From: Marsupella aquatica
Lineage: Eukaryota; Plantae; Marchantiophyta
Assembly: GCA_973895155.1 (NCBI GenBank)
Contig: OZ316892.1
Span: forward strand, 11,658,238 to 11,722,237
Reading direction: 5' to 3'
DNA length: 64,000 nt
Below the pieces are notes generated by a model. That model did not search any database and was not told where the DNA came from. It worked only from the letters and a program-made list of their open reading frames with translations. The position numbers and the translations under genes are program-made. Below, piece after piece: positions 5,684 to 43,925 of the stretch (within the stretch, counting starts at the first letter, position 1; the number at the start of each line of letters is the position of its first letter).

Positions 5684-6866
5684 TCATAAAACTCGTTGAA
5701 TCTGGCCCCTACGCTCCCTCCAAATCAACCTAGACTTATGTGCAAGGCGTCTACTCATGCTAACAATCCTTTCTGTCGCGGCCAGATCCTCCACTGGCCT
5801 AAATGCTGCTTGAACCTGTGCTATGCTGGTTCCTTTTTCCAAAGCGCATTTGGCAGGGACTACATGTCCCCACCAAAACTCTGACATTATCCGAAACATA
5901 AGACCCCAATACTCAGCATTATGCTCAATTCTAAAGGCGGAACTACCATTCAGCGTCCATACGTAAAAATACATATATTTCCTATCAAATGTTTTTAGAA
6001 GACCCTGAGCTTGGGCATGTAATAATGGGGAACGCAATCCCATGGAGTCCCAAGCTCCGGTTTCCCTTTGTTATGTGGGGATTCACCTCGAGAATCCCCA
6101 ATTCCTTATCAGTATCTTGCACTCCCTCAACAATATTATACGTGATCAGGCCATCAGGAGATCCTCCCAACTATGACAGATAATCATCTCCAGCGTGGTT
6201 GATAGACTTTGAAAGCAGCGTGATCCACGCCATTGCCAGTGATCTCCTTATACTTCCCAATGGCATTTGCCTCTGCACTCGACCCCCAAATCGTTGCCGC
6301 ATTGCCGGTAAACGGCTCTCTGATGCCAATCTTGTCCTTCCACAGCTCAACTCGGCGGGTTCCCCAGAAACCTAGAGAAGTCCCAAACGAACTCGCAGTG
6401 ATGCGATTCTTCCTGAGAGCCAACCACTCCTGTGAGCCCTGCAGTAAGTCAGGCCGAATCACCTCCAAGTCACGAGGATCAATGGGGGTGCAGTACTTGT
6501 CACTTGCAAGGACAACGTTCCCTGCCTTCGTTTCTGCACAAATTCCACATAGCTTTGGACAGAACCTCCACCTTGACTACTAGGGAATTCGGAGGGACTC
6601 ATCTGCTCAGAACCCACTTCAGCCCAACTAATTTTTGCAGCACACCGAGAGACCTCAACCTGCTTGGAATAGAAATTCATGAATGCGTGCTGCCAAACTC
6701 TTAACCCTTTCCGGCTCCTGGACTGCGTTACGGTCAGAATTCCTCCACTTTGCATGCCTGAGAGTGACATCCTCCGCTCGAATACTCTTCTACCGATTGT
6801 TAAGATAGATGACATTGAGCATGAGCATGAGCAGAGCAGGCCTCGCTGTGCACTGCTCGAGAACAT
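5684..6866 (-). pseudogene. YqaJ-like (lambda-exonuclease/PD-(D/E)XK restriction-endonuclease fold) nuclease pseudogene
   Basis: Motifs QGSQEWLALRKNRITASSF, WG..AE..AI.KY, LGGSPDGLI, GILEV, PHYYMP/QAQG, FYVWT.NGS, YW...FWW.HVVPA are spread over several reading frames. In-frame TAG at about 6171 (S*LGGSPDG) and at least 3 frameshifts. Confidence 0.8.
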
Positions 6867-10726: not shown

Positions 10727-11140
10727 TATTAGGGTGTCTCAAATCATTAAACTTAATTACAGCTTTTCACTACAGTACATTGCCACTAAAGAGTTCCACT
10801 CATACCATATTAGGGTGTCTCAAATCATTAAACTTAATTACAGCTTTTCACTACAGTACATTGCCACTAAAGAGTTCCACTCATACCATACTAGTGTATT
10901 TTAAATCACTCGTTTAATTACAACTTTTAACTAGAGTACATTGCCACACTAAAGAGTTCCACTCATACCATATTAGTGTGTCTCAAATAGTTTGTATAAT
11001 TACAGTTTTTTACTATAGTACATTGCCACTAAAGAGTTCCACTCGTACCATATTAGGGTGTCTCAAATCATTCCTTTAATTACAGCTTTTAACTAACATT
11101 GCCACTAAAGTGTTCCAATCATACCATAGTAGAGTGTTTC
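10727..11140. repeat. ~81-bp tandem repeat, about 5 copies
   Basis: tattagggtgtctcaaatcatt...ttaattacagctttt...gtacattgccactaaagagttccactcatacca repeated. A partial unit also lies left of the MITE at about 10005-10045. Confidence 0.9.
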
Positions 11141-13368
11141 AAAGCTTCAAAATTACTGATAATGACATTATGCTATAAAGAAATGGTCCTAAATTTTTCA
11201 CAAGACTATGTAAAGGTTTTTTTTTGTTTTATTGGTTTGCCAACCTCTAGAGTGACTATTGGTAATCGTATAAGACCAATCCTTATGGGAAACAGTTATG
11301 GACTGTGTATGAATTTTGTATTCCGTAACTTTTTTGGGTCCATAACCTGTAACTTGGGAATTAAGGCCCATCAATTGTCAGTTATGGGAAAACGTTATGG
11401 ACGATGTATGAATTTTGTAGTCCATAACTTTTCTGGGTCCATAACCCATAACTTGGGAACTAAGGCCCATCAATTGTCAGTTTTGAGACGCCCTATTATT
11501 GTATTTGTAAACTAGCTTGCTTACTCTGTCCTTGAAAGTTAGAGAGATGAAGGAAACAAATATTTATAAATACAAGAAGTGGCAGTTTTGTCAATTTGAA
11601 TAGCTTTAGTGGCAAAGTAAATGAAGTTGTTCTTAAACTTAGATTTTCTGGCATAGATTACAGTGTGATTTTCTCTAGATTTTCTGGCATGATTTTCTGG
11701 CATTGGTAATGTGATAAACATGAATGATCGTGCTTGTTTCACTGCAAATATAGTCATTTGTGCTTTGTGCCAGGAATGGTTGTGGTGTGCAGCGACGCCA
11801 GGAACTTTGCAAAGGACTTGTCATGGTGTCAGGTATTAGTAGAAATAAACATCTCTTAGTTCTTCAAGTGTTTTTAAGATCCTGGTACCATGGCGCATTA
11901 TGGGCAATAATAGGCCCTCTAATCTCAAGTTGAAGCTCTTGTTTTAAGGGCCATTATAGCATAGTTACAATGTCATGTAAACAAGATTTTAGTATGTACT
12001 TCTTGCCCTTCATGATTTTTGTCTTTGTAATTTCCGGTGCTTTTGTGTAGAAGAATGTATAGTCTAGATTTGGGTCCTTGCATCATGAAACTTGTCCTCT
12101 ACTTTTATTGAATGTCATTATAATCAAACTCAACTCTTTAGTGTTTAGGTTCTAGAGTGAATCCTCTAGATAGTGACAGGTGTTTAAGAAAACTGGCAAC
12201 ACATTACACAAGACACCAGCAAGCACACATTACATCGACACCATAGATACATGGTTACATCTTCATCAAGGCTACGTCCACGGAAGCACAAGACCTTTAC
12301 TAAGCTTTGGCCACCATACCCAAACCAAGCCTCCAAGTACAAGCTCCTATCTTGCTCACCTAGCTCCTACCTTCCTCTCTTACAAATGTGCATTAGTCTC
12401 ACCAAGGAACACTAGAAGAAACCGAGCCTTGTTGAGACCGGAAATTGTGACTATTTTTAGTCCTTGTGACACCAATGTGACTTCCTCAACCGTGACCCTG
12501 GTTGAGACCGCACAAGTTATCTAAATGGTGACTAAAATATGGAAAGTCACTAATACTACTGTACATCGTGACATGGATGATACCCAAACTGTGACTAGGT
12601 GCTGACTAAAATAGAGCATAAAACCACACATCTAATGTGACTACACTGTGACTACCATCAGTCATGCCTCTCTTACTACCATGACCTCCGACGAACTGAG
12701 ATTACTGGTATTTGCGACTAAGTTGTGACTATGTGTAGTCATTTTAGAAGTATCAGTTTTAACATCTCCAAGTTGTCAACACATCCTTTGGATCTGGTGT
12801 TAGTAGTGTTTATAACTAAGATCGTTGAAGGAAACTACATGGCCTAGTAATGAACATGACTTATAAGGCGATTGTTGAGGACTTATGGGTCTTGTGTTAG
12901 TATTTGTGGTATAATTGTGAGATGCACTCTTGTCTATGACTATTTTATTCTAGTCATAGTTTTCAAAGTATCGTGCATTCATGACAATTGCACGAGTATA
13001 ATGAAACATAAGGTGCATTCAACACATTCAAAGGCATGATACGGAATGAGTTGAACACATTTTCAAAATGAAGCATTCATTGCAACAGAATTTATCCAAA
13101 TTATAGTTCACAATGATACAAGACTAATGCAATCAATTCATGATCTTGCAAAATGTCTGTGCATCTGCAATACACCAATACAAGAGCTCTAGACAGACAA
13201 GAGCTCTAGACAGACAGCTGCTTCTAACCTACATACCTAGTCATTTGGGAGAACTCAAACCAAAATATTCATATTAACTAATATCATGTCAAAGGTAAGG
13301 GTTCTTATGTTTTCTACATACAGAAAGCATGAAACTAAAACTACAAACACATGGCTGTATGCATGACT

Positions 13369-16300
13369 TTACTGTTCATCCTCTATAAACTTGCTTGGCC
13401 ACAGTATTGTAGAACCTACTGCATCAAGAAGAACTCTTTGAGGAGGATCATCATTGGTGTTGGGAAAAGGGAGAGCAGCCTTTGGAACCACAAGTAAGTC
13501 TATTAACACTACAGAATAACCAGGTGGAACTTTTCTCCCATGGAAAGTTGTGGAACCTGCTTGCACCTTGCCAAATCCTACACATGTCCCACTATCATCA
13601 ATAGCCAACAACTTAGAATGCCCCTATGCATTTGGTGCCTTCACTGTTTCCACCTTAGATTTCTCCTTCACCACTGACCTTGGAGGTTTGTAGGTTGCCC
13701 TTGTTGTGACTTTGCTTCCAGTAGACTTGCTTCTGGTGCGCATGCTCCCTTTCTTTGAATTCACAATAGTCAAGTCTGTCTCCAGGGGCACTTCACATGG
13801 GATGGCCACAGAAGTAGACTCCTTCCTAGGGATGGCCATAGGAGCAGACATCTCTGTTGGCATGGGCACACTAGCAGACCCACCTGTTGTTGTCAATTCA
13901 GGTAATTTTGGAATGGGACCAAGATCAGGGTCCACATTCCATAAACATTCTTCCATATAGGATGTATCTGGCTCAACATTATCATTGTCAGGGAAAGTAT
14001 ATTGTTCCTCTACCCCAACATTTGAATTCATATCACCTTCAACAATGTCAACCTTGAGCAAAAATGGTTCATCATTGCCCTCTGCCAAATCCCGGTTATC
14101 AACAGGCTGCAACTTGGTTGCCTCTAAGTTGCATCGACTCTTCTTCAAGTGAGCAAATTTGCTTTGCTCAACATCTGCTTCTCTCTCTATGGGACACCAC
14201 AACAATATATGTCACATTAACAATGTCAAATACCAAGTCATCATAACCATTCTAATGAGTCATAACCTAGATTTCTAGCATCATATCCAACAAATATATA
14301 TAAAGTCTTACCTTGAACTGCAGATACCACTGGAATGCCAGAAGAGTGCATAGACTTTGCCACCTCAAGCGGTGATGGTGGAACTCCTCCAGAGCTGCTT
14401 TCAATCTTACTTCTCACCGACACTATGACTTCCATTAATGATGCAAACTTACCATGGAACAACTTAGTCAGCTGACTCAATCGATCATTCACCTCTGGCA
14501 GACATGTCTCCACAAACTTCAAACGCTCATTGATCTGTGTCAATGAAGATCCACCTCCCTACATAATAACAGAAAAACAATGAGTCACTCACAATCCACA
14601 GTTGGGTAAGGATATAATTCCATGTATGTGTGGCCTATACTCTTCCCTTGAAGGTCATTCAACTTGGAACCCTAAAATATGTACTTACAGCCTTTGATGA
14701 CTCAGATGCCTCACACTTGTTATTCAATATCTCAGCCCTCAACTCTTCTTTTGAAGGGCTTTGCCCCAACTGGGCTTTCTGCACATCAAGAACTCTTAAC
14801 ATCAGATCCCTTGCAATTTAGAATTACTTCAACAACAAACTCAATAGTACTTATAATCATCAGTAAATGAATATACTATCATTCCCGGTTCTTACCAAGC
14901 GTTTTGTTGTGGGGGCTATGCCGGTTCTTCCTGTCAGGTTAGGGTTCTGAACACTCAATCGTGCATCAGTCATCTGTGCACTCTTCTTTTTGGAAGCATC
15001 GGTCACAAAATAGTCTACCAACCTTTTCCACACTTTATCATCACAGCTTGCTGGTGGTGGCATATCTGGCTTCTCCCCACCTTCTTTCCATGCCTTGTGC
15101 ATCCTCCATCTCTCCTGTTTAATAATCTTGCTTGCTGTACTTTCCAAGCATGCAATGTCCACTCCATCATCACTGCCCACATAATTCCATCGAGCAGCAA
15201 TATTTTGACAAACCGTCTTCCAATCTTGGGCATGTTGTTTTTTAAAATTAATAATACTCACATCCAACCAACGTAGAACTTCAGCTTTCAAATCAGCATG
15301 CCATCGATTCTTGCGAGGACACTCAGCATCCACCCATTGTCTGTCATTCAATTTTACTGTCCCTTTCTTTGTTACTTCCCCCTGTGCACTGCTCTTTGTA
15401 GTACTGGGGGGTGTAATGAGCACCCCTCGATTCACCCTACTTGGAGTTCTGAAGTCACCTTCACAAAGCCATTCCCATTGCCAAACATTCATGTATCAAA
15501 CAGATGCAATTACAAGCTTGTACCTAGGTGGCAATCATTCATCATAAAACATAGTTACATGCAATCTGCACAAACAAGTTTTAATTCCAGGGGACCACAA
15601 AAGATAAAACATACATATACCTGCACCTCCACCTGTAGGCATCTGTACAGGGACAAAATTCTGATATTGTTGTGACTGTTCGCCACCTGCCCAACCTAGT
15701 ACATGCTTCTTTTCTAGTCATTATGTACCCACTTTATAGCATGGATTGACAACATCAACATTCTTCATGACTTAGTAAATTGGTAAACCTGCTATCCACT
15801 TTCAAATTTACCTGACCCCCTTCCATGCTGCATCTGCATAGGGGCGTTAGTGAATACTTTGATCCTTCACCCGCCCAACCTGCACACACATTTGCCATCA
15901 TTCCTTAAACATGAACCTTGAAAAGCCCATTTGATTGGACTATAAAAAAGTGACTTACCCTCCAATGCAAACAAGTGGAGACTTTACCTATTCCTCTTCC
16001 TGCATTCATAGGGGCTGACATATTCTGATACCCCTGCCAATTACCAACACCACCTTCCCAGCCTTGTTCATTCCAAGTCCCATCAGCATCCTCCCAACCT
16101 GGTTCCACCCAAGTTTGTCCTGGCGGACATTGGTACTCCTCATTAGGAGCATTTGCCCAATCAGGTTGAGCAGAATCTACATGCAATTCAAGCGAGGACA
16201 CAATGTAATCTTCTCTCAATCCAACCGTAACATAAATTGCATTCATTGCAAGACCTCACAGTCCTTCACAAATTTTCCACACTACTAATTAGCAAAGGAT

Positions 16301-17060
16301 TGGCATATAAATTAATTGAAATACTCACATCCCCATGCTTGAGGTGGACAGCCATACCCACGAGACTGTGAGTTTTGACCTGATCTACCTCTGCTGTGGC
16401 CAAAACCTGAACTCTGTCCCCTCCCGTAGTATTGGGCACCAATCTGGGATCTACCTCTATTACCACCTTGCCAACCACGGCCAGGGTTCATCCCACCTTG
16501 GTATGGTGGATGCACAGGTTGAGTAGGCAAAGCAGAAGGTACGGGACGTGGAGGGATAGGTTGAGTAGGCAAAGCAGAAGGCACGGGACGTGGAGGGACA
16601 GGTTGAGTAGGCAAAGTAGAAGGCACCGAACGTGGAGGCATAGGTTGAGTAAGCAAAGCAGAACTCACGAGACCCTGCATGACATACATCACCAAATATA
16701 ATTTGAGAAAACATTATGGTCATAGCTAGTGAACGCATGAGACCTAAGTTGTACTCAGCACTTGAACCCAATACCATCATTAGAAAACTACATACTTGCT
16801 TCTTCTTTGGTGGCTCCGCAATGTATTCATCTTCATATCCACCATCCTTATCCATTTCCTCTGGAAAATACTCATCGTCTGGATTGTTTTGTCTCCCCTC
16901 GTCACCCACTTGTGTAGGATCTATCTCATCTGCACATTCTGCCATTGTAGGTATTACCTTGTTGCTCAACCTTTCACTTCGACGCACAGGTCCAGTGGTA
17001 CTGCTAGTCACCCTCCTTTGACACTCCTTTTGTTGCTTTGAAAGGTCTGTGCATCTGCAA
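13369..17060 (-). pseudogene. CACTA-1 TnpA-like (ORF2), multi-exon, with premature stop
   Basis: Ptta/En/Spm Transposase_24-like segment WKRLVDYF...KKSAQMTDARLSVQNPNLTGRTG, and C-terminal FHGRKVPPGYSVVLID...LPFP...DAVGSTILWP (TNP1-type). In-frame TAG at 13624. The 5' boundary is approximate. Confidence 0.75.
16515..16660. repeat. 42-bp coding tandem repeat (~3.5 copies) inside TnpA-like gene
   Basis: aggttgagtaggcaaagcagaagg.ac.g.acgtggagg repeated; encodes PPRPVPSALPTQP. Confidence 0.9.
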
Positions 17061-17412
17061 CACACCAATACAAGAATCAAATCACAATTTTAGTGCCACA
17101 ATCAAATGTTCAGGTCACACCCAACTTAACATCAAGTTTTGGCAGAAAATTGTTCCCTTACAATTCAGCCACATCCATTTTCAAGGAGGCTTCCAGTCCG
17201 GCTATTCTGGCATTCACGTATGCTCGACGTTCCATGGCTTGCCTTTCATACTCACACATATGTGTGTCACTCTGTTCCATCCTATTGGATCACAAGCACA
17301 TGTCATCTATGGTCACCTTGAAACACAATCCAATTACTTGACCATGCATCTGCTCCTTGACAATTAATTTATTACAAAATCTATTTGTGTCCATGCAAAC
17401 AATGCAGGTTAC

Positions 17413-20400
17413 TCAAGGCACAGGTTCACTATCAGCATCTGGATCATTAAGTTGATCCCCTTCAGCAAATGCCTCTACCCTTGTCACAGGAATGAACTCC
17501 CTGCTATCATTCAGAACAGACACTTGGTGTGCACGTCGACGATCAAAGGCACTATGAGAATGTAAATGGAACTCAAGTTTAGATCCTTCCATCCGACGTT
17601 GCCTAGCCTATTTGTGACAGACTACACGCCAACCTGGGGAGTCTTCCACATCCAGGAAGAAAGCTTGCTCCACCTGACTGGGAAAGACAAATGGCTCAGA
17701 CCATTCAGGCAATTTCCCTCTAAAATTGGCAAGCAAGAATCCATCACTGTCTCTCTTCATGGTAGCCCTATTACTGTCCCAATCCTGTCGAACCCATGAA
17801 CCTTTCATAACAATGACAGGGCTGGACATGGCCCCATAATCTAGAGCCCATATGTCAATTAGTTCACCCACATATCCCATCTCCATCCAGGCCCTATCAT
17901 GGTCATGGCTCTGCTGTTGAAATACAGTAATGAGCCCGCAGTCATTTGTCACCCTGTACGCACTCTCATCATCCTTCACTCGAAAGTGATTCCCATATGC
18001 TCTCATCCGTTTGTAACTCTTCACTCTCAGACTAAGGGCATTGGATAGGAGGTAAAGGTCTGCATCCATGTCTGGATGGGTTGTATGATGCTCCCTAATC
18101 GCTAGCCGGATCCACTCTGCCAAACTTGGAAAGGCTGGACCAACAGTGGGATGGGCAGCCTTCAATGACTCGTACTCCCTGAAGAAACAATCTCACAACA
18201 TTAGCTTGGCAATCCATTGAAATGTTGGGAGTTAATCACATGCAGACAATGATATGTTATGAAGGAGGTTGTTAGTAGGACATGATGGTACTCACTGTAT
18301 CCAAGGTTCCATGAGCACAGTGTTGTGCAATACAAAGACATGTGCCAAGTCTCTCATAGCTATTGTCAAATTCTTTGTTGTTGCAGCCCCTTCCAATACT
18401 TCCCCTATGACCCCTTCCTCCTCATCAGAATTCCAGACCCTGGTATTCACATGCTCATACTGTGCTATGTATTCGGTCAGAAATCCTAGGGTTTCATCCT
18501 TGATGTAACCTTTAGCCATGCTTGCTTCTGGCTTGTAATATGTTCTAACGTGACCTTTCAGTAACTTCATGTACCGCTCCAAAGGGTACAGCCAACGAGC
18601 ACTAACAGGCCCAAACTGGTGTAGCTCTTCCACAACATGGACAAGTAGGTGAGTCATAACATCAAAAAAAGCTGGGGGGAAATAAATCTCCAAGTCACAC
18701 AACACCTGAGCAACATCCTCTGTGAGCTGTGGGAACTGGGCTTCATCCCAAACCTTCACACAAATACGGCGAAACACATCACTCAATCGCATGATGACAT
18801 TACGAACAGGCTTCTGCAAGAGACCCCTCAAGCATAAAGGCAACACCTGTTGCATCAACAGGTGATAATCATGGCTTTTCATACTGCCAAGCTTCCTACT
18901 CATAATGTGCTTCTTGAAAGCACTCCCATAGTTTGAAGGAACTTTCAAAGAACCCAACCTTTAGACAAATAGGTTCCACTCATCATCTGTCAGAACATAA
19001 GGCGCTTGGTACTTTAACAATACATCAGCTTTGGTAGCATGTGGCCTCAACCACAGATGGGGTTTGATACCCCTCCGTTCAAGATCCAATCTTACAGCAC
19101 CAGTGTCTTTCTCTCCACACAAAAATCGCAGAAGACTCTCACAAACATTCTTCTCAATGTGCATCACATCAATGTTATGTTTGCTTGGCTCAAACTTCTG
19201 CACAATTGCAATATATATAAAGTGAGTATGCAAATGCATTTAGTTGAGTCTAGTCAAAATTCATGCACATCATATGAAGCATTCCAAAGCAGCAATCATT
19301 TTCAAGGAGCAGAGAGCCTCAGAGGCTTACCCTCCAATACTCCAGTTCCAAGTCCAATATGCTCTGTCTTTTCACACCATATCATTTTCCTGGATCACCC
19401 ACTGCATCTGGCCTGCCTCCTCGTTTGATGTAGTCATCCTTGAGTGCTCCCCACTACTTGATCTCTTCTTTGGTCACCCGCTCTGGGGGTCCGCGATCCT
19501 CAATGGTGTGGTCAAAGTGTGCAATGAGTGCCCGCATTCGTCTGTAAGGGTGATTTGGCCTCAAAAAACGACGATGGCCCATGTATATCACTTTCCCCAA
19601 AACTCTAGAGTGCTCACTGGTGACATTGGGCCCACAAATAGTACATCCCCGATACCCTTTTGTTACTTGTCTTGATATCATACCATGGGCTGGGTAGTCA
19701 GCTATAGTCAAAATGATGATTGCTCTAAGTATGAACGGGTTCAGCCTCCCAAGCCTCTGCAGCACATCATATGTGAGAACTCCTTCATCCCATAGCTTCT
19801 TCAATTCTTCCACAAGGGGAGCCAGGTACATGTCTATGTTGGCAGACACAGTAGAGTCTGGCCTTGGTAGCAGCAGAACTAGGAGGAACAAAAAATCTCT
19901 TTGTAGTCATCCAAGGAGGAAGGTTGTAATTCAAAATAGTTACAGGCCAGCATGAGAACTTATTGTTCTTGTCTCCAAATGGGTTTACCCCATCCAATGA
20001 CAACCCAAGCCTCACATTCCTTGGCTTTGCTGCAAATTCTGGAAACATCTCATCTATGAGTTTCCACTGTCTTGAATTGGCAGCATGTCGTTGCAGCCCA
20101 TCCGAGCTTTTTTTTGAAGCTACCCAAGTCATCATCTTTGAGATAGCAGGGCTTCTAAACATCCGTTGAAGCCTAGGAATGAGTGGAAAATGACGAAGTA
20201 CCTTTGCTGGAACTAAAGACTTCCCTGCGTTTCGATACCTGTGCTTCCCACACACAGTGCATCTCAAGAGATCCTTATACTGATTTCTGAAGAGAATATG
20301 CCCATCAAGACAAGCATGGATGGAATCATAGTTCAATCCAAGATTAGATATGCATCTTTTAGCCTCATACATGCTTTTTGGCAAAAGATTATCAGGCGGT

Positions 20401-21153
20401 AGCACAGTCAGTCGTAGGAAGGCCAACAACTCAGAAACAAAAATGTTGGGGACATTGTGGTTGCCGCAAATGTTCAGGAACATGATGACAAATGCTAGTT
20501 TGGAACACTTGCTACTGGGATAAAGGGGGTGCCTGCATTCCTGAATTTGCACAGGAGAGCCAAACATCCAATCATGCCCAGGGGTTTCTTGCCCTATCTC
20601 AAACTCATCTAGAGGATTGTCAACTAGGCACACTTGCATCAGCATCAGTGTTGTCTTCATTGTCCAACCCATCATGAAATGCATCCAAGTTCTGAAAGAT
20701 GTCTCGCACCATCTGTTCCACATGAATGTCTTCGTCACGTGGCTCTGCCCGACGAATGTCCTGTTGGTGGTCAGTGATCCCACATAGACCAGCAACAGCA
20801 TTGTCCAAATCACCTGGCAGATCCACCTCCGACCGTCGCACAACATTGGCAGCCTGAAAATCTGCCCTCCACTCCTCATCAGAAGTATCTTCCTCCGCTG
20901 GATCATTCCAAACTCGATGTCGTGGATCTCGCCCATTCACCACAATATGCCGCCAAACCTCACTGAGGACCCTGCTACGAGTCCCTTGGCAGATTGCACA
21001 AGGACATCTCATCCTACTGGCTCCTGCAAGTCTATTTCTTAATGTTTCACGCTGCCAAAGCTTATTGTCATGGCGTGCAACTCTTATGGGATGATGTAAA
21101 GGCAATGGCTGTGCATTGCGTTGGGTCTGGGGAGGGTGGTGACGAGGGTGCAT
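17413..21153 (-). pseudogene. CACTA-1 TnpD transposase (Transposase_21/DUF4218/DUF4216-type architecture), disrupted
   Basis: CPC..C, IHAC..GHILF, LRHFPLIPRLQRMF, NVRLGLSLDGVNPFG, YNLPPW, ADYPA, DVMHIEKN, KSHDYH, FFDVMTHLLVH, WLYPLERY, EPFVFPSQVEQAF. Frameshifts at about 20625 and 19890; in-frame stops at 19454, 19382, 18961 and 17608. Confidence 0.93.
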
Positions 21154-21616
21154 TGTAATAGACTGCAAACTCTGCAATGATGAACAGTGGGTGAAAAGGG
21201 TAACAAAGTAGCCTACTAATGGTCAAAAGAAGAAGAAGTTGTTGTCATGTGAATTGGTCATGTACCTGAGTTGAAGTTGTCAACAATACAAATAGCAAAG
21301 GATGTTTGCCCAGCTCTGTAAACACCCCGTTCAGTACAAACTGTCTCCGTAGGGGCCTTGCAACACTGTATGTAGACATGAGGACAAAGCCACATCCCTG
21401 GTTAAGGAAAAGCCAACACGACACACAACACAGAACAGAATTTGAACAGAATTTGAATAGCATCCAAAGCAAAGAGATGATTTGATTGTGGAATGACATG
21501 ATGAGAGGACAATGAATGTTTTTATTACAGATGGAATTTGAAGGAAACAAGTTCACCACTCAACAAGTATTCATTGTCTAAATGACTGACACTGTCATGG
21601 CTCTTCATCAGATAAA

Positions 21617-22531
21617 CTAATCACTGTATTCGCCAGTGTCAAAAGAGTATTCGTCCTCATCACTCATGGTTTCCCACTCTGTGGTTGTGTCCCTGAGTAC
21701 ATCATTAACTAATGGTTCATCACCTCCATCCCAACTCTTACGTCTTTTGTACTTAGGCTTCTGAGGCCACACCTCATTCAGATCAAAGGTTGCTTCATCA
21801 AGTACAATGCCTCTATCTAGTGACTCTTTCATCCAAGCAGGTGAAACCACTTGCAGGCCCCTACTAACCATCATCCGAACTAAAGTCTTTCCAACCATAT
21901 GACAAAGTCTGGAATAGGATAGGGTGACCACATGAGTGGTAGAATCTATGAGGCATTCATGCACCTCACCCTGCCTGTGCAGAATTTTGTGCTTGAAACG
22001 TCTCAACCTTCCCGGTGGAATCCCAACACCCACAAACATGACCTTAACCCCCCTAAACATGACCCGCACATGGGGGTTTATGACAGGCATAGGATGCTCT
22101 AAGAGCTCTTGCCTAGTTCCCTGTGAAGCATCATCATATTGTGCTTTGAACTGCAAAATGTCTTTGGTGGCCCGTTTGTTCAACCATATATCATACTCTG
22201 TTGGGTCCTGAAGGGTGCTATATTCTAGACAGTCATACATCCAAGAGACATCAACAACCTTAAGACCATAGGACTCTCTGTAAAAGTTGATGGTGCTCCA
22301 AAACCACTTCTGCATCACATCACACCAATCATCAGCGATGACGTGTGTGGTGTCTCTACTGATTTGTTTCAACACTATCCCTCCATTCTCAACCAATTGT
22401 CTTTTCATGAACTCCCATCTATTCGTGTCCTCCCCCCTAGTATGAGTGACAAAAATTGCTCTAACTCCAGCAAACAGTGTAGGAGGAAGGTCTGAGGCAA
22501 GCCTCTTCAGTGTCCTACTGGAGGTAGCCAT
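21617..22531 (-). CDS. transposon-borne tandem BRCT-domain protein (304 aa)
   Basis: Two BRCT repeats: LFAGV...KRQLVENGG.V...TTHVI...VVDVSWMYDCL and MFRGV...KHKILHRQG.V...TTHVV...VVSPAWMKESL. Basic KPKYKRRK stretch and acidic tail. Intact intronless ORF inside the TIRs. Confidence 0.85.
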   Translation of the reverse strand: MATSSRTLKRLASDLPPTLFAGVRAIFVTHTRGEDTNRWEFMKRQLVENGGIVLKQISRDTTHVIADDWCDVMQKWFWSTINFYRESYGLKVVDVSWMYDCLEYSTLQDPTEYDIWLNKRATKDILQFKAQYDDASQGTRQELLEHPMPVINPHVRVMFRGVKVMFVGVGIPPGRLRRFKHKILHRQGEVHECLIDSTTHVVTLSYSRLCHMVGKTLVRMMVSRGLQVVSPAWMKESLDRGIVLDEATFDLNEVWPQKPKYKRRKSWDGGDEPLVNDVLRDTTTEWETMSDEDEYSFDTGEYSD

Positions 22532-22845
22532 GTGCAGTGCAGCCTTTTGACAGTGTGAAGGAAAAAGTGGACACCCCTGATATCACCTGCAGATCCATGA
22601 GAATGCCTAAATATGCAATTCATACAAGGATTGCAACAGCAACAGAACAAACTTGGGTATTGCCACATTCACATTCACCATGACATCCATAAACATGCAT
22701 GATATTCGTGTACACAGTGGGAATAACCATAATACAATAGGCAAGTTTGGAGTCCTGACTAGTTTAAAATGTGCAGGTATCCTGCCTAAGACAAAACTTG
22801 GCTAACCCCTAAAATGAACGCATGGTAAATATAAACTCCACCACA

Positions 22846-23520
22846 TCAAAGCCAGGAGATATGATCATGGGCAGGTGTGCCAAGTACAGGGTCAATGGGA
22901 TGCCTCGGGCAGTAAATCATCCACCGCTGCTGTCCATGCACAGTGTGCAGCCAAGGTTCTCTGTCTGGTGCAAAACCATGACGTTGACTCTCTCTTAAGC
23001 AACCCTCATGCCAGGTGGTGGGACATCTCAAGCATTGAATTGCCTTTGCCATATGAGGGTCTTTGTGATCTTGCTTGCATGCTGTACATGCATGCATGGG
23101 GCAAGACTCCACATCAAGCGGCAAGCACTCATGACAATAAAAATGAACACAATATGGCTGAGGGCACTGTCTGACCGCTGGAGAGACCACGCCACACTTG
23201 AAACACTTGTGTATCTTATTCTTGCAATCTACACAAAACCAGGGTTCACCATCCTTGCCTGGTGCAATAACCACTGCAGGACACTTGCCTACAGTGTCAC
23301 CAATTCTACAGACATAGTGAAAATGACGATGGCAAGACCCATCACACATGGCCAGATCTCCATGAAAATCACATATCACACACAGCTGGGGACTACACTG
23401 ACGCTTCTCAATGTCTGACCAGCGTTCAATCTTCAAGCTATGTGGCTCAATTGCCTCATTATGTTTCCGCTTTTTTGTTTCAGTGGCATTTTTTACGGCT
23501 TTCCTCTTCTCCCTAGCCAT
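22846..23520 (-). CDS. transposon-borne composite PHD-finger protein, EDM2/NSD-type (224 aa from ATG at 23520)
   Basis: N-terminal basic NLS-like stretch, then CVICDFHGDLAMCDGSCHRHFH...WFCVDCKNKIHKCFKC...C...C.HFY...CPMHACTAC...QCLRCPTTWHEGCL...MIYCPRHPIDPVLGTPAHDHI. Intact ORF inside the TIRs. Confidence 0.85.
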   Translation of the reverse strand: MAREKRKAVKNATETKKRKHNEAIEPHSLKIERWSDIEKRQCSPQLCVICDFHGDLAMCDGSCHRHFHYVCRIGDTVGKCPAVVIAPGKDGEPWFCVDCKNKIHKCFKCGVVSPAVRQCPQPYCVHFYCHECLPLDVESCPMHACTACKQDHKDPHMAKAIQCLRCPTTWHEGCLRESQRHGFAPDREPWLHTVHGQQRWMIYCPRHPIDPVLGTPAHDHISWL

Positions 23521-23939
23521 TACCAAGACTGAACATTAAACAGACAAATGTACAAAGTTATTACTATTGCATATAGTGAACGACCCCCTTCAAATGACAA
23601 AACAAACTACACATGGGCAGTTCCCCTGAAGAAGCATCATTTGATAACATTGTCACCCAGACCACAACCAGTTTATTAACTCAATGTCTTGAGCCTCAAT
23701 GTCTTGAGCCTCAATGTCCAATCCTCAGCCTGAATTCTGCCGTGTTTGTTCTGAAAACTTCTGTGATCAAATGCTTTTTCAAGATTGTCAATAGCAAAGA
23801 TATCTGCATCACACAAGAAAATTAGTTAGACAGTGTGAATGCAAATTTCAAAACACTTAACAAAATTCAAACCACCATTTCAATTCAAACCAATTGGCCA
23901 TGCATGTTACTACAACAATAAACAAATAATTAGGCTCAA

Positions 23940-24120
23940 CAGACAGGAGTTCAGAACTTGCCATTTGAGATTGACAATCTGAACTTCAGATTCAGACAGA
24001 ACTTGCCATTTGAGATTGACAATCTGAGCTTCAGATTCAGACAGGACTTCATCCAATTCAGGAGTTCAGACAGGAGTTCATCCAGTTCAGGAGTTCAGAC
24101 AGGAGTTCAGACAATCTGAA
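23940..24120. repeat. short tandem duplications inside CACTA-1
   Basis: cagaacttgccatttgagattgacaatctga.cttcagattcaga x2; caggagttcagacagga repeats. Confidence 0.8.
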
Positions 24121-27100
24121 GAGGACTTTGGACTTCAATGAGGGACAGCCTGGCCAAATAGTTATCCTTGTGGCCTTCAGCTGCATGTCTCAGGCTGAAT
24201 TTCACTTTCCAGATTTGAGAGAGGCCTAGTTTTAGTAACTTTTGTCTGACTCAACTTGGGAGCATTCAACCTATTTGCTAGCTTGTAGTTAGCTTTGACT
24301 CTCTGACTGTCAGCTTCATTGACGACCCTCTTGAGATATAAACAATTAGAACAAACACAAGTTGTCAACACAGATTCCATCGGAGCCATTATTACCTATT
24401 ATGTCAAGGCAATGGCTTCTTCTATTCCTTGTTGTAGCCAATTCAAATGTGTCATTCATTAGCAGACCTCTTTGGGAACCATAATAGTATGCAAAAAAAA
24501 AGTTAGCAACATTGCTGGCCTATCTTCACTCAGGATTCCAGGTTCAGGATACTCACTCAGTTGAGCGCAGTTGGACAGAAGTCACCTACCTCCACAAAAC
24601 CTTGTCTTTGAACCTCCAAGCAGGAGCTCACTTCAATACATGAGCTGAGCTAGATGTAAATTGCGCAGCTTCACGTTGCACCTCAGAGCAGGAGCTCGCT
24701 TCAGTACAGCAAGTCCTAGACGGAACCTCCTGTATCGGCCCCACAACAACAATGTTAATAAGGCTCCAAGTTGGACCTCACTTGGGCTAGCTCATGCAGA
24801 CATCATAGCTAGAAGCCAGGAATTACTCAGACACTGAATACTTCAGAATGGCCCATGGTGGTTGTCATACAATGCAACATTGAAAGTTAGAGGAAATATC
24901 CCATTCCGTATATTCAATTCACATTGGTTAGGGATCATACTGACCTCTTTTGGATGTATCAAACCTTTAGCATACCGAGTCAGCTTAGCGCAGTTGGACA
25001 AAAGTCACTCAGCCCCTTGTCCATAGCACGTTCTGAACCTCCCGCCTCACCAAATCCAGCAAAGAGCAGTGGATGCACAGCCTAGATAGCCAAACAAATT
25101 ATGGATCCAATCCTGACACAGTTAGAGTCTATGCGGATGCAACTGCAGCATGGACAAAGGGTCTCTTCCTTCCACTTAATATAGTCAATTCTTGCAAATT
25201 TTGTGAAAGCCCACTTCTGCCGTGACATGTTGTGAGAGTGAGAGGGGTTACGCTACAATCATATGTGGCACTAGTATAAGCCCCGACTTTATTCTGAAGA
25301 CTTTAGTGAATAGACACATGATTGGAGCAAGAATGTGGGCGCAACACATGATTACCTCATGCATGCATTGACTCAGCTTTGCATGATCGTAGCTCCCTCC
25401 TAGGTTGCAGGACCAGCTCTCGATCCAGTTGTAAAGCAGCAGCTTGTCTTGGCTCCTGGTTGCAAGTCGCAACCCAAGCTCTTGCTAGCAGCGCCCCGTC
25501 GCTGTTCAACGACAGTTCAGCTCAGGTAAGCACGCTTGATCTCTATCGTTGAGATCAGTTCAGCTTAAATAACTTGCAGGAGTCAATAAGCAGGAGTCAG
25601 GGCCACTATCATTTTTAGACATCGCAACTCAAACAGCTCATCAGTGACCGCAACTCAAAGGCCGATGCTTCAGTGACCGATGCCTCAGTGACTTTTGTAA
25701 TTCATAAAAGCTTCTCTTCAATGACCACTTCTACTACGGGAGATATGAACACCGAAAACCCAGCTGAAATGGAAAAAAGGGGGGAACGGCACCAGATAGT
25801 CCTCGACCTCTGTGAGAGCGCTCGCGATGGCCACTTCCTAGGTGGAATCTGTCTGCTTTGAAGTGAGAGGAGCACCGCAAATCGTAGCTGAAACCGCGGC
25901 CATCTTCAACAACAACAAATAGCAGCTGCAACGAAATGAGAACTCAGCAAATGTCGCAAATGCTGCCCTGCTCTGCTCTGCTCCGAATGTTGTTCTTGGC
26001 GACACACCAAAGCCTCGTCGCTTTGCTGATTCTCTTCCTACTGGTGCAGCCTAAACCTCAGCCCAAGCAAGCACATTCGATGGGCAGTTTCTGTCGGAAT
26101 GAGTGCCTCCCGCAGTGCAAACTCTTCACAGTGCCTTCCGTAGTGCCTATCGTCGATGCGTCACATAATTGCTCTTGTCCCCTTCCAATACATTCTGTTT
26201 CGTCGATGCAGCACCCTAAACTCGCTCTTCTCGCGTCCTACTACTCACTTTGCAGTCGGGATTGCAATTTGTCGATGCAGCTTTTGCCTTAGTGACAAAG
26301 TGCCCCCTCTTTTCCCTTGCAAAGAATGCAGCATTGGCTCCTCGTCCGCGAAACCAAAGGAATCCAAGGCAGAATGGCAATGCCGTGAAGGAACACATTA
26401 AACCCTAAAGCTGCTTTAATGTGCGCATATTTGTTTTCAACCGTCAGATCATCCTTTCATTAAGTTTACAACCGTCAGATCCTTGCTTGATTAAGGTAAG
26501 CACTGTCACACGAGCTGTCACAAGTTCTTATGCTCATTCCATCAGCATAGTGTGTGGGGTGCCGTTATTGGGTATGTAACATGCATGGAGGGGAGTATAT
26601 GAAGGTAAATTGTGACTATTCCCGGTTCATGGAACGATGTGTGGAGGGGGGTACATGTTGGTCAATTTGTAGGGCATGGCAATAAGTAAAAATAACCTGC
26701 CCTTGCACATGTAACCACGGTAATACACATTAACGTCCCTTGCATATGTAACCACGGCCAATAGTGAAGCCTTTTTGCGGTTGAATGGGGGCATGATGGC
26801 ATGGTGTCTAAATTAATGGGTGCTTATGAGCAATTTTCTTGGCCTGGAATAATCATGGAAAACTCACTAATGGTTAAAATGCATGACTTAACCATGTTTA
26901 AATAGAGTAATCTAATTATATAGGTATATCTACACTAACAATGTATTGGGTAGGATCCCATAGCTCAGGGTTTAGGTTGGTAGGTTCAAATATTGTGCTA
27001 TAAACCATAATGCTATATTGTAGAGTCACTTGTTGAACTTCAACGTAATTGCCTCAATTGAGTTGTACTTGCAACTTTCCAAATAGTTGAAAACATGACT

Positions 27101-30100
27101 CCCCTAAACTTCACCAAAAATCAGTCAACAAGGTGTGACGAACATGACACCCTAAACCTTGGAGTCACTTATTTCTGAAGGTCTCGCACAAGTCATGTAA
27201 GGGAAGGTCTCAGAATAGCTCGGTTTCTTCTAGTGGAATTATCTCTAGCTCCTATAATGCTAGGAAGTGCTAGGTAAGTCTAACCATGGTTAAGTTCCTA
27301 ACTATGGTTAGACTAACTATGGTTTAACCCAAGAGTAAGCGTTAACCAAAAAAACAGGGGGCGGGTGACAAACAGGGAAATGGAGTGGTTGGCTTGAGGA
27401 GGGCTTAAATGTCCTCACATCTATTTTAGTTTAGAGGGCAGGCACTCAGGCCATCAAGCCATATCAACAGTTCACCTCTCCCTCTTTTCCTCAGAGCAAG
27501 GCTCCATGGGTTGGGGCAGGGAGCACAAAAGTGCCCCAGGAATCTTGGAGCCAAATAGTTTACAAGATTCATTTTAGCCATACATACTTTACAAATTTTA
27601 CCCAAAATAGAAACTTTTCAAATTTTGATTTAGCACGAATTAAATTCACATTCATAACATTTGTAAAGTATGATACTAGTGTACCCTGGGCCCTCAACTT
27701 ATATAAATTGGAGAGGTAGTGCAACATTGAGAGAGTAGTTTAGGTTGATTTTAAATTAATTCTTATAATGATTACCAGCAATGGTGAAGACAATGGAGAA
27801 TGTCTGTTCACAAATAGGTTCCATTTACACGCAATGAAGCCCGAGAGTATCCCCAATTGGATAAGTACATATTTTATCCAAAACCCAAAGTGAGTACTTA
27901 ATTACGAGATCTACTCCACACAAACTACAATTGGAGAGCAAGTATGTGGTTGGAAAGCAAGTGGGCGGTTCATGGCCCCACACCTAGTATATTAATCTTA
28001 CAATTGGAGAAGATTCATTAGAGAAACGTGCAACCGAAAGTTTGGATAGGATTCCAAAATGCTCTTTATATGTGCTGGTATTGGAGGAGACTTTTCTGTT
28101 TGTTTCCCCCGGCCATGGGGTTTGCGTGGCCCATAAAAGTTATAAAAATTCTAAAAACGTTTAAAGGAAAATGCTCTTTATATGAAAGTCCAGCTTTTTG
28201 GCTCAAGATTTATCATCTTAGTTGAAGTGGGATGTTTCTCCAGATCCCATGCAAACTTGGAATCCTACATAAGAAAAAGGTTTAGAAAGGGGATCCCGTC
28301 CAACCGTTTATACCTGGACAACTTGGGCACTGTGTAAAGACTCGTATCCCCTTACTCAATATTCACTTCATCTTACTGAAAGTATATATTTCAATCCTAT
28401 CTGATATAAAGGCATAGAACGAGGATCCCAACAAGCTCCCAGAGAAACTTTTGTAGTGTGTAAAGATTAGTATCATTTCACTCAAGATTCATATCATCTT
28501 AGTTAAACTATATGTGTCCATAGATCCTGTTGGTTGAAATCCTATGTGATGAAATGGTTTAGGAAGAGCATCCCATCCCATCCAAGATAATACCTCCAGA
28601 AACTTGTGCAGTGTGTATAGAAGTAAATCTAATGACGTTGAAGCTTGGATGAACATAAATGAAAAATGAGATGTATTCACTTTAGTTCCACAGATTACAT
28701 GTAAACATGCATTTGACTGGTAATCAAATGTTGCAGCTGTCCATATAGCCATCTCTGTAATCTTATTCATTCAACTGAAGGAGTTGGTTTCCCTTGTTTA
28801 TTATAGTTACCGTGTATATAACCTCTTACATTTCCATATCGCATCAATGTAAGGTTCCAGGAGTACTGTGACATTGTAAGGTTCATACAAGTAGTGACGT
28901 CAACTTTAGTGTCAGAGATTTGTCATTTCAAATTTAATTGTGGGTGAATCTCCCAATTAATTCATGACACTGTAAAGTTCTGGGAGTATTGTGACACCAT
29001 AAAGTTCTTGTGTACTCCGAGAGGGAGTGTCAAACATTTGTGTCCAGAGAGTTTCCACTTTAAATCTAATGGTGGACAAAACTCTCTATTATGTCATTAC
29101 ATTTAAAGGTTCCACAAGTATGGTGACACTGTAAAGTTAGTGTGTCCATCCAAGTAACAATGTCACAAGTTGACATAAATTCAGTCAGGAAAACCAGTGT
29201 CAAAGTAACAAAGTAATCAAAAGCCTAGTAACCCAGCACCAAACCTGAGTTATCCTATACATCCATGAGAGTTAACACTCCAAATTAAATGGTGGGCGAT
29301 AGTGCCTATTAAATTTCATCGTAAATGCCAACGCAACGCACAGAAAGAACAGTACAGGCGTCTAAAAGTATCCTCGTGAGCAAAGGCGTGATCTATTATG
29401 ATGTGGCCGATCTGTCCACACGGCTCCAATTCCTCCAATCTGCTCTGCATCCGCAACGAACGATTCGTCCGTCGCTCTGCTCTCGCAGCTCTCATCGCTT
29501 GCCATCTGTTTCCATCGCTACAGTTGTGATGCGCCGAGACTCCAGATTGGGTGTCGATGTAACGCCCATGGGAACCTCTAGACTCTAGACCGAGCTTTGT
29601 TTCTGAATTGATGGAGAGAAGGTCGCAGGGCGAAGCTGGAGCTAATCGGGAAGAGTTTGCTCTCAGAGTTCCAGGCTTTCAGCGCTCGATTGTGCCTCGA
29701 GCTCCTCTGGCCTCTGCGCTCACGGATTCTTTTCGCATGATGATGGTCGAGCGGTGGAGCAAGAAAGAAGACGCGCGGGTGTGCTTCGAAAGTGCAGGTG
29801 CCGTGGCGTCCAATTTTCACACGCACTTCGTTGCGTGTTCTACGTCGGCTGCGGTTCGCATGGAAGGGAGAAAGAAAGGAAGACACGAATCGCGTCGAGT
29901 TTGTGGTGGAGGTGGAAGGTAAGAGCGGCCGCAGAGAGTGTGAGGGATTATCCTGGCAGGAGAAGTCTGTGGCTGCGTTCGAATTCCGGAGAACTTGGTT
30001 CGTGCTGTGGTACTTGTCTAGTTGATTCTCGTTTGTACAGCGGTACCGATCTAATTCGTCTCGAAGCAGAAGCGGATGCTCTCTGAGGAGCATGTTCGTT

Positions 30101-30873: not shown

Positions 30874-33800
30874 ATGTCGGCGAGGTCGGCAGCAATGGCT
30901 GCCAGACGACTGGCAGATACCGTGTCCAGGGATATTGTGGAGGATATATACCGTTGCAGCTTTAAAAAACAGACAGGTGTGAGCCTCAAGTACATGATGG
31001 ACTTCGGTGCTTTTCCTACGGTCAGAAATTTCCTCGTTTCAGCTCAGTTTCTGCACAAAGAGTTGCCTGTTAGATTGGCACATCGGGTCACCGAGCTCGA
31101 AAATTTACCGCACGGCCTGTCTACGAAGTCTCCAGTGTTGAAGGTATTTTATAGTGGCTCGTGATCCCCCATGTCTAATTCTAAATTCCTCTCCACAAGC
31201 TACGTTCGCTCTTTTCTGCTCGGCATTTTTAATAGAATGAGGACTAGGATCATAGCAGGAGCTATTTCTTAGTGAATATTTAAGGTTGCTATCGACTCGA
31301 CTACCATTTGATTAGTGTCACTGTTGCCATCAAAAGCATGCATTATCAACCATGTATGCTGTCAGCAATGTACAACCCCGGATAAACAACTAACAGCTAA
31401 TTAATTCTTGAGGTTGGTTCCCAGTCTTGACACAGATGCTGATGCTCTTCAGAGACTTGATGAATTGTGTAGGATGTGGCATGAACGCAATGAATATGTA
31501 TTTGCGCATGGCCTTCAAATGCATCATTGTCAATTATCAGTCAACTATCATTGGCAAAATATTGAAGGCTGTGGCGTATATTTATGAAGCTAATCTATCT
31601 ATTTGCCATGGTTTTACTTTCTCACAGGTCCGGGACTGGTATGTCGATTCGTTCAAGGACTTGCGAAGCTTCGCAGATATCCGAGACTTGCATGATGAAC
31701 TTCGCTTCACGAACCTTATCTATCAAATTAAAATGCGACACAACGATGTCATGCCAACCATGGCCATGGGTATCAACGAGTTGAAGGAGGACCTTGGGCG
31801 GAAGGTCGGATTGAACGAGCTTCCCGAGATACACCAGTTCCTCGATCGATTTTACATGTCCCGAATTGGTATCCGTATGCTCATTGGTATGCTTCTCAAG
31901 CCTGACTAATTTGAATGTTACCACATTAGCTATGTAAGATTGGTGCGACTTTTTTCCTATGGACATCGCCGCACGGCAAGGGGACCCCAAAACTTGTAGT
32001 CTGAGGAACAGTTCGTGGCATGCAGGTCAACATGTCGCACTACATGAAAAGCATCCACCCCCTGGCTACATTGGCCTCATTTGCACGCAATTGTCACCGG
32101 TTGAAGTTGCCCAAAATGCAATTGATGATGCACGGTCGTCTTGCATGAGGACATATGGCAGTGCCCCTGAAGTTCATGTATATGGTGATCCCAACTTCAA
32201 GTTTGCGTAAGCAATTCCCCGTCTATCGCTGGTGATATTTTCGAAATGCTATCTTTTTGAAAGAAATATAATAGTGCGAAACCATTGCTGGACCGGGGTA
32301 TTCGAAGTCTGAAGGATAGGTCCTCCTCAAGAATGTCTAGCAGGATGCTCCACCACGAAGTTGTGCCTAATTGCCTTGCTTGCTCTGGAGGATTTCCCTC
32401 TCTTCTTTCGGAAGATGTTATGTGGGATAGATTTCGGGTTAAGATGATTCTTCTTTAATGTGCAGTTATGTACCAACACATTTGCATCAAATGCTTTTTG
32501 AGTTGGTGAAGAATTCGCTGCGTGCCGTGCAAGAAAGGTTTCAGGATGATGACCGCGATTTTCCGCCGATTAGAGTGGTTGTCGCCGATGGACTGGAAGA
32601 TGTTACCATAAAGGTGTGATGTTCGCAGTGAACACGCCAAACTATAGTAGACAGTTTTGCATTCAAAATGTGCTTGGTAGCATTGAGAGTTTACGTAAAT
32701 TGTGGCTCACAAGGTTTGTTGCATTTTAGTCAGATATCCGATGAAGGAGGTGGCATTCCAAGAAGCGGGCTACCAAAAATTTGGACGTACTTGTACAGTA
32801 CAGCAAAGAACCCCGCCGCTATTCAAGAACAACCAAACGTCATGGCTGGCTATGGTTATGGGTTGCCAATCTCTCGGCTCTATGCAAGATACTTCGGCGG
32901 AGATTTGCAGGTTATTTCGATGGAGGGTTATGGTGAGTTGCTTTTAATTCCCGTGGAACCAGTAAGAAAGAAATCCAAGAAATCTTCACTGGAATAGCTT
33001 TGGGTTTAAACAGTCATTATTTCTTTCTTGCGTTGCCTCTGTGCAGTCTGTGGGCCTTGATCTCTTTCTTTCTATTCTTTTCCGTTTCGATCCGAGTTCT
33101 GCATACGCATAGTCAGTGTGCAGAGAGTTGTGTTGGGCTATGAACGTGGCAGTCCCAAGTGTGAAATAGTGGGGCAATTAACATAAAATGCTCATCGAGC
33201 TGAAAGTTATAATTTTGGTTTGGGGGAGGTTAACTGGGGATACAGAGTAGAGCACGTGCAGCTGTAAAACAGTGTCATGATTGAAGAGGCCCAATGCTGG
33301 CTAGCCGATCCTGTTCTTGAGTCTAATTAGCTGACAAATAGTTCAGGCTTGGCCAAGCAATGAGCACGGTGTGGGGAAAAGGACTAAACCAAAAGGACCA
33401 CAATACCAAGAAAAATGGTCGTCCTCGAAACACACTAGTTGCAGTTAGATTAGCGTGCGTGCGTGCGTGCCTAGCTACCAAATTGGGGACAAACTGCAAT
33501 CTTTCCAGAAGAAATGCGCAGCGATGACGGTGCTGTCATCGCTGGGCTCGTTCCAGACTGGGAACTCCTTCGATGTGATGATTGCCACTGGTTCCTATGG
33601 GCTCAAAAGTAGTTGATTTTGAAACTTTATTGCTTCTTACCACGTATAGTGAGGGAGCTCAGAACAAACCCCTAGCTCTTGATATTATATGGGCTTGGAT
33701 TTGAAAACCAATTTGACCGTATCCTTCTGAACCAGAAATTAAATCCCTGCATGTGCTAGATAATCCGCATGTCCGTTTCTGCCCACTAATGTGTTGCGAG

Positions 33801-40242: not shown

Positions 40243-40842
<600 letters not shown>

Positions 40843-43284: not shown

Positions 43285-43925
43285 CATTTTGCTCAACATG
43301 GTTCTGTCAGCCAGTTGCCCAAAATCGCTCCTCATTATCTCAAAAGCTAACTGCTCATTATGACCTCAAAAGAAAAATTGCTCAAACACACATCGGTCAG
43401 CAAATTGCTCACTATGATCGTAAACGCTAAAAGTGCTTACTATGGTAGTAAAAGCTAAATTGCTTAAACTTGGTTCTGTCTGCAATTGCCCAAATTGCTC
43501 ATTATGATCTGAATAGCTAAACTGCTCAAACACAGTTCTGTCAGGAAATTGCTTATTATGATAGTTTAGGAGCTAAATTACTTACTATGTTCGTAATAGC
43601 TAAATCGCTTAAACATGGTTCTGTCAGCAAATGGAACAAATTGCTCCTTATCATCTCGAAAATTAAATTGCTTATTATGATCGTAAATGCTAAATTTCTT
43701 AAACATGGTTGTGTCTGCAATTGCCCAAATTGCTCATTATGATCTGAAAAGCTAAATTGCTCCAACACTGTTCTGTCAGCAAATTGCTTATTATGATATT
43801 AAACGCGAAATTGCTTACTATGGTCGTAAAAGCTAAATTGCTTAAACATGGTTCTGTCAGGACATATCCGCAAACGTGATTCTGTCAGAACAAAAGCACA
43901 TCTGCTCAAATGGGATTCTGTCAGC
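43285..43925. repeat. degenerate satellite-like array of ~28-bp subunits
   Basis: Recurrent aaagctaaattgct(c/t)attatgatc and aaacatggttctgtcagc motifs. Confidence 0.85.

Follow-up and report, generated by a model that had tools for sequence, protein, structure and literature searches.

A stand-alone EDM2-type PHD gene in a liverwort CACTA transposon, a candidate chromatin-binding helper

Introduction

What use would a DNA transposon have for a histone-reader fold that it carries as a gene of its own? The question is raised by a locus of the liverwort Marsupella aquatica, where a short gene encoding PHD fingers (the PHD ORF) lies inside a CACTA (EnSpm) element. We analysed it within a stretch of 64,000 nucleotides, which is referred to as the window. 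The closest named relative put forward for the gene was EDM2, which is reported to bind H3K9me2 through its PHD module (PMC9910501) and to act within the AAE complex (PMC9910501, PMC7529245, PMC9292364). The original prediction, made from the DNA alone, held that the element had captured only the reader module of EDM2, either to promote the processing of its own silenced transcript or to compete with the host complex. Here we address what the gene encodes, where it may have come from and what it could do for the element.

Results

The CACTA element and its genes

The element that bears the PHD ORF displays all the hallmarks of CACTA/EnSpm transposons, namely CACTA TIRs, a 3-bp target duplication and a Tnp2 transposase (Table 1). 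The two TIRs are 30 nt long each and 87% complementary, and a GAA target duplication flanks the element at 12407-12409 and 27236-27238, in agreement with the placement of the ORF between a pair of CACTA TIRs from which the original prediction started. The BRCT ORF, the Tnp2 transposase and the TnpA-like exons all follow downstream of the PHD ORF on the same strand. The sole kilobase of the element to have retained its CpG dinucleotides lies upstream of the PHD ORF; it represents a putative promoter or first exon, of which a promoter is the likely one.

Table 1. Positions of the PHD ORF, its parts and the host element in the window.
Feature	Position	Strand	Basis
CACTA (EnSpm) element, 14,826 bp, four genes all on the minus strand	12410..27235	-	TIRs, target duplication, Pfam Transposase_21, DUF4218, Transposase_24
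Left TIR, begins CACTA	12410..12439		inverted-repeat pair
TnpA-type gene exons, extent approximate	13384..15492	-	Pfam Transposase_24 E 3e-4, under curated cut-off; tblastn with second element
TnpD-type transposase gene, frameshifted at ~20.6 kb and ~19.9 kb	17608..21153	-	Pfam; comparison with second element
Tandem-BRCT ORF, intact, 304 aa, second accessory gene	21617..22531	-	Pfam BRCT E 1.6e-13, 2 stretches
Stand-alone ORF, predicted EDM2-type triple PHD	22846..23520	-	translation, profile search, BLASTP, AlphaFold model, ligand alignment
Finger 3 (C145-H207), then EDM2-type tail motif to ~22852	22900..23088	-	motif check, BLASTP, ligand alignment
Finger 2 (C106-H143), H-to-C ligand C129, 7-residue linker	23092..23205	-	ligand alignment
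Finger 1 (C47-C99), C4HC3, long H-x11-C spacing of EDM2	23224..23382	-	motif check, ligand alignment
Basic NLS-like N-terminus, aa 2-20	23461..23517	-	translation; homologues P0002 and P0003 likewise begin basic
CpG-retaining stretch at the array's 5' end, candidate promoter or first exon	25410..26409	-	CpG o/e 0.74-0.80 versus 0.04-0.51 in other 500-bp bins
Right TIR, ends TAGTG	27206..27235		inverted-repeat pair

In a second CACTA element of the window, the transposase is one single ORF. Compared with it, the transposase gene of the first element shifts frame at two places, and related contigs of high depth show an indel difference at the first of these. Because of the two frame changes, this copy of the element is probably non-autonomous, both of its accessory ORFs being intact. 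A contig from run X3 joins the flanks of 12410 to 27279 without the element, corresponding either to an empty site or to another copy of the repeat that was hit by the insertion. Just 5' of the PHD ORF, at 23584-23700, contig depth rises far above that of the surroundings (~950 versus 55 in run X1), and this stretch is possibly a shared regulatory motif or a small exon.

The second CACTA element occupies 54457-64000 on the minus strand, with a related TIR at 54457 and a transposase ~69% identical to that of the first. It contains a BRCT ORF at 63558-63998, cut by the end of the window, and an ORF of 191 aa at 62764-63339 for which there was no Pfam match. Helitron Rep and PIF1 helicase ORFs lie at 51246-54458 (minus strand), and since the Rep ORF stops where the TIR of the second CACTA begins, the latter appears to have inserted into the Helitron. 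Elsewhere in the window we observed an exon with a YqaJ-like viral recombinase domain at 6184-6576 (minus strand; Pfam E 7e-9), probably part of a host gene, and, near the PHD-bearing element, host genes for a pyruvate-dehydrogenase-kinase-like protein and for a cold-shock domain protein with zinc knuckles (30874-33000 and 40243-40842). Tandem repeat arrays were found at 10727-11155, 43286-43873 and 50884-51129, with units of ~81, 145 and 19 nt.

An EDM2-type triple PHD cassette

The PHD ORF runs uninterrupted on the minus strand for 224 codons and its product ends in MIYCPRHPIDPVLGTPAHDHISWL, exactly as had been claimed. The gene had also been described as intronless. The open frame agrees with this, but an acceptor-like, pyrimidine-rich AG located 8 nt 5' of the ATG leaves room for an exon, and a 5' exon preceding the ATG may therefore exist. 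The translation begins with a basic, NLS-like stretch, which could mediate nuclear import of the product. It is followed by three cross-braced fingers, whose zinc ligands are C or H at all 24 positions. Compared with Arabidopsis EDM2, 23 of the 24 ligands are identical, the exception being an H-to-C exchange in finger 2 (C129). An AlphaFold model based on a 35-row alignment reached a mean pLDDT of 85.6; an earlier run with a 4-sequence alignment (pLDDT 38.7) was set aside. Foldseek searches with the model returned generic PHD and PZP folds only. The ORF has an extra cysteine, C71, which is not conserved in the homologues P0001-3.

The PHD ORF was combined with three close homologues (82, 70 and 63% identical) into a search profile, which was run with HMMER against 1.84 billion proteins and yielded 265 matches at E<=1e-3. 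Among the best 150 of these 265, the EDM2 tail motif was present in 110, motifs of the ELP domain in 72 and either of the two in 119, while a SET motif occurred in none. The top seven matches are short proteins of 109-245 aa, and the four that were looked up are unnamed or 'hypothetical'. The named members of the clusters looked up comprise Arabidopsis EDM2, Neltuma EDM2 and proteins from Marchantia, Riccia, Calypogeia and Ceratodon. By BLASTP, the ORF aligns with residues 224-432 of EDM2_ARATH (P0158) at 29% identity (E 4e-24), and it carries the tail motif YC..H..I...TP..DH. Its finger 1 has the spacing H-x11-C, compared with x10 in the Arabidopsis-cluster protein P0066. The likeness to the PHD region of EDM2, proposed when the gene was first described, is thus borne out, and the ORF is almost certainly an EDM2-type triple PHD cassette.

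NSD1/2/3-type proteins share the same finger superfamily, and with the PHD ORF the Atlas returned, at 0.93, an NSD-like PHD cluster of streptophytes. The PDB matches to human NSD2/3 are weaker, cover aa 44-173 only (45-173 at E 7e-9) and end before the EDM2 tail motif, and they do not have the long H-C spacing. Pfam matches to PHD-NSD are weak, and Pfam finds neither a SET nor a PWWP domain in the ORF. An origin from NSD/ASHR3 proteins was ruled out on motifs and domains; the comparison between the two families, which the original prediction had called for, led to EDM2-type matches and to no unrelated PHD family. Searches of the PDB did not find a solved structure of the EDM2 cassette.

Several parts of EDM2 are missing from the transposon gene. 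Neither the RFD domain, which the host proteins possess, nor the ELP methyltransferase-like domain was matched anywhere in the 64-kb window, confirming that both are absent here. Ahead of finger 1, where 16 full-length EDM2 proteins have an acidic tract with 6-11 D/E in 20 residues, the product has 3, and its finger 2 linker has 7 residues, compared with 26 in Arabidopsis EDM2 and 14-36 in plant hosts, which amounts to the loss of a 19-residue insert. Judged by its domain content, the product is not an EDM2 orthologue.

Origin of the gene

Among 19 host proteins, the five top BLAST scores against the PHD ORF (104-113 bits) belong to four liverwort paralogues, namely MPTK1_1g03210 (Marchantia), KAL3685775 (Riccia), CAM6087769 and CAM6107985 (both Calypogeia), and to the unnamed protein P0030. 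In all five, the ELP domain is missing and little sequence follows the fingers. In the same comparison, Marchantia MPTK1_4g03050 scored 98 bits, full-length EDM2 proteins 86-99 and NSD-like protist-type proteins 84-89. To say that the element captured only the reader from a full-length EDM2 was therefore an overstatement, since the top host matches already come without the methyltransferase-like domain. All the named ELP-less liverwort paralogues except 4g03050 keep an RFD-like N-terminal region, which indicates descent from EDM2, as opposed to the transposon. EDM2 paralogues without the methyltransferase-like domain were seen in liverworts and a moss (P0013, P0012, P0015, P0031, P0044 and P0045), and one of them, a Marchantia gene of 280 aa (P0044), comes close to a bare PHD cassette. 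For the liverwort paralogues of this kind, we found no paper or published function in the open-access literature.

Phylogenies were calculated from a selection of 54 rows out of about 175 proteins (tree 1), in a careful run with distant outgroups after dropping 21 long, partial or redundant rows of tree 1 (tree 2), and from 24 rows without an outgroup (tree 3), the last set also serving for AU tests. The short proteins form one clade in each of them, with support of 96, 100/98 and 100/100, respectively. This clade groups with the ELP-less liverwort paralogues in tree 1 (SH 91) and tree 3 (82/99), making these the nearest group in two of the three trees, and falls outside all plant hosts in tree 2, on a long branch and with weak support (82/78). 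The AU tests gave p values of 0.045 for a seed-plant-type group, 0.30 for full-length liverwort EDM2 and 0.30 for the moss paralogues. A seed-plant-type donor would thereby be barely rejected, and liverwort full-length EDM2 and moss paralogues stay admissible. The best host gene found is only ~30% identical to the PHD ORF. The gene was likely taken long ago from a host gene of the EDM2 family, and we infer that the likeliest route was capture from a liverwort-type paralogue that was already without its methyltransferase-like domain.

Copies, variation and selection

Members of the short clade are 25-82% identical to the PHD ORF. The finger 2 His-to-Cys exchange and the 7-residue linker are common to nine short sequences, including the PHD ORF, and the short proteins likewise do not have the acidic tract before finger 1. 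Some of them are damaged: P0001 and P0005 have ligand substitutions, and the C-terminal halves of P0007, P0064 and P0070 fall out of register. Such damage in several homologues is expected of a multi-copy mobile gene, and the short homologues may well reside in transposons too. Scans of metagenomes for their genomic context found none; a 23-residue match within a 2925-aa helicase-like ORF was discarded as unrelated.

Diverged PHD-like copies were present among the public contigs of all four sequencing runs. In run X4, the diverged contigs had depths of 1326-2485, compared with 167-188 for near-identical ones, a 7- to 15-fold difference in contig depth, which is not the same as copy number. Furthermore, two of these deep diverged contigs also match the non-coding flanks of the PHD ORF. 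Depth and flank matches both support a repeat-borne family. In run X1, transposase contigs were ~1500-1900 deep, compared with ~130 for PHD-like contigs of at least 80% likeness. Abundant relatives of the element in this run may have no PHD gene, or one that has diverged further, and the mismatch counts against a universal role of the gene.

The best-supported 40 of 163 contig differences include 36 within the PHD ORF, 19 of which are synonymous and 17 not, with 22 at third positions and no nonsense change. The synonymous share (19/36) compares with an expected 0.26 (p 6e-4) in a rough test that pools subfamilies over these 40 rows and is not a dN/dS. The ligand codons show silent changes only among these differences, and the sole uncompensated indel listed in the PHD ORF occurs in one X1 contig, at a depth of 15 of 248. 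Degeneracy in most copies, a prospect raised when the gene was first described, is thus not what the public contigs show. Finally, the CpG o/e of the PHD ORF (0.29) is about that of the transposase (0.27-0.28), and this equal depletion fits a long stay in a methylated element. Altogether, the PHD ORF is likely an old transposon accessory gene kept under selection, as opposed to a fresh fragment.

Discussion

What, then, could the gene do for its element? The predicted fold and a basic N-terminus, with nothing else, would allow for binding at most, and any effect would have to be exerted via partners. That the product reads histone tails seems probable. Our preferred reading, to which we give a probability of roughly 0.4, is that it acts as a chromatin-binding helper that gives access to the silenced copies of the element itself. 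The protein would grip histone H3 tails on these copies, and this grip would open them to the element's own proteins for access, expression or mobilisation. Sequence specificity would come from TnpA or TnpD, as neither a DNA-binding nor a catalytic domain is recognised in the cassette; in Spm elements, TnpA and TnpD are reported to provide it (bioRxiv 10.64898/2026.08.24.746577). The adjoining BRCT gene likewise suggests a helper module acting on chromatin or in repair. Against this reading, a histone reader by itself cannot distinguish copies of its own element from other heterochromatin.

The mark that is bound may not be the one originally proposed. The protein had been assumed to read the same mark as EDM2, but it has lost the acidic tract and the 19-residue insert, and liverwort TEs are described as frequently carrying H3K27me3 and not H3K9 methylation alone (10.1101/2022.10.24.513474). 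Because of these losses and the frequent H3K27me3 on liverwort TEs, the mark may be other than H3K9me2, and the histone-mark specificity has probably changed relative to EDM2.

We favour the chromatin-binding helper ahead of four other explanations, taken here in descending order. In the first, the PHD and BRCT proteins would form a module for transposition and repair with no part in anti-silencing. The reader would anchor the transposase complex to selected chromatin where the element is to insert, and the BRCT protein would recruit break-repair factors at excision and insertion sites. The BRCT ORF is next to the PHD ORF, and a BRCT ORF precedes the transposase in both CACTA elements of the window, the two being 33% identical (E 8e-18). 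PHD fingers are also described as fused to other transposases in Rehavkus (PMC6446971). The best PDB matches of the BRCT profile are repair proteins (TOPBP1, ligase IV, TdT and polymerase lambda; E 1e-6 to 3e-4), yet these matches are generic and point to no particular donor. The Atlas gave no match of at least 0.9 for the BRCT ORF, and an origin of the BRCT pair from polymerase lambda was weighed and found unsupported. The second element, which is cut by the end of the window at 64000, may or may not pair its BRCT ORF with a PHD gene. We consider this explanation rather unlikely.

Two explanations go back to the original prediction. As a decoy, the bare cassette would occupy marked nucleosomes or partners and out-compete the EDM2-like readers of the host, thereby weakening silencing or processing genome-wide. 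It does retain all ligands while having none of the effector domains, and EDM2 is reported to affect more than 2,000 TEs in Arabidopsis (PMC7529245). However, a protein ~30% identical to the host cassettes, without the acidic tract and the insert, would be a poor mimic; the same report has EDM2 raising silencing marks at some TEs and lowering them at others, so that blocking it brings no clear benefit, and Marchantia itself encodes the near stand-alone cassette P0044. Such a decoy is improbable. As a helper in RNA processing, the protein would recruit AIPP1/ASI1-like proteins so that the methylated, intron-containing transcript of the element is read to a distal poly(A) site. The AAE complex is reported to do this for heterochromatic introns (PMC9910501, PMC9292364), and the element is a long array of co-oriented genes with introns, but the protein has neither an RFD nor an ELP domain, and we hold this role to be improbable as well. 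Least probable is a passenger, a host fragment captured in the style of Pack-CACTA elements with no role for the transposon or kept for the benefit of the host, because, common as gene capture by CACTA elements is reported to be (PMC13317346) and although damaged homologues exist, open frames and conserved ligands over long branches, the synonymous excess among the listed contig differences, the derived changes common to nine short sequences and the low identity to the best host match all speak against it.

A wider version of the chromatin-binding helper, which we regard as doubtful, is that an old CACTA lineage in seed-free plants has combined a re-engineered reader from the heterochromatin machinery of the host with a BRCT protein into a toolkit for recognising its silenced copies and for re-activating or mobilising these. 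If true, the re-engineering would consist of the new ligand, the lost insert and the lost acidic tract.

Comparison with known systems

Transposon-borne fused PHD fingers, anti-silencing proteins and epigenetic cargo on EnSpm elements are already known. No EDM2-type reader encoded by itself on a CACTA element was found in the open-access literature, which was covered without Repbase. Such a cargo may be listed in a survey of 962 Spm proteins (2026 preprint). In term look-ups, PHD was not mentioned in a 2026 gene-capture review, the main text of a 2026 atlas covering Arabidopsis TE products contained none of PHD, EDM2 and BRCT, and EDM2 was not mentioned in PMC11982613.

The triple atypical PHD cassette and its tail motif are shared with Arabidopsis EDM2, the AAE component. 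Unlike EDM2, the PHD ORF is encoded by a transposon and has no RFD, acidic tract, ELP domain or C-terminal region, in addition to its exchanged finger 2 ligand and shortened linker. The ELP-less liverwort paralogues come closer in that they also end shortly after the tail motif and are mostly without the acidic tract, but all of them keep the finger 2 His and the insert. The finding draws attention to these methyltransferase-less paralogues in liverworts. Moreover, the PHD ORF offers a small natural version of the EDM2 cassette that is predicted to fold well, which eases testing of how EDM2 recognises its mark.

Among transposon proteins, VANC of VANDAL Mutators and TnpA of Spm/CACTA are described as separate accessory genes whose products target cognate copies at the level of chromatin or expression (PMC10398659; bioRxiv 10.64898/2026.08.24.746577). 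According to the same sources, both bind DNA sequence-specifically and TnpA stems from a transposase, whereas the PHD ORF is predicted to encode a host-derived histone-reader fold without a recognised DNA-binding domain. TET/JBP dioxygenases carried by fungal DNA transposons, including EnSpm, are likewise reported as stand-alone ORFs of chromatin systems in complete elements, with a proposed role in escape from silencing (PMC12730594); they are, however, eraser enzymes in fungi, compared with a reader in plants. The plant counter-silencing proteins of transposons that we found in print bind DNA. If our preferred reading is true, a heterochromatin reader of host origin that a transposon keeps as a gene of its own would represent a different strategy in the conflict between hosts and transposons. 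In the wider version with the BRCT protein, it would be part of a reader-based counter-silencing distinct from the DNA-binding strategy of VANC and TnpA and from the eraser strategy of TET/JBP.
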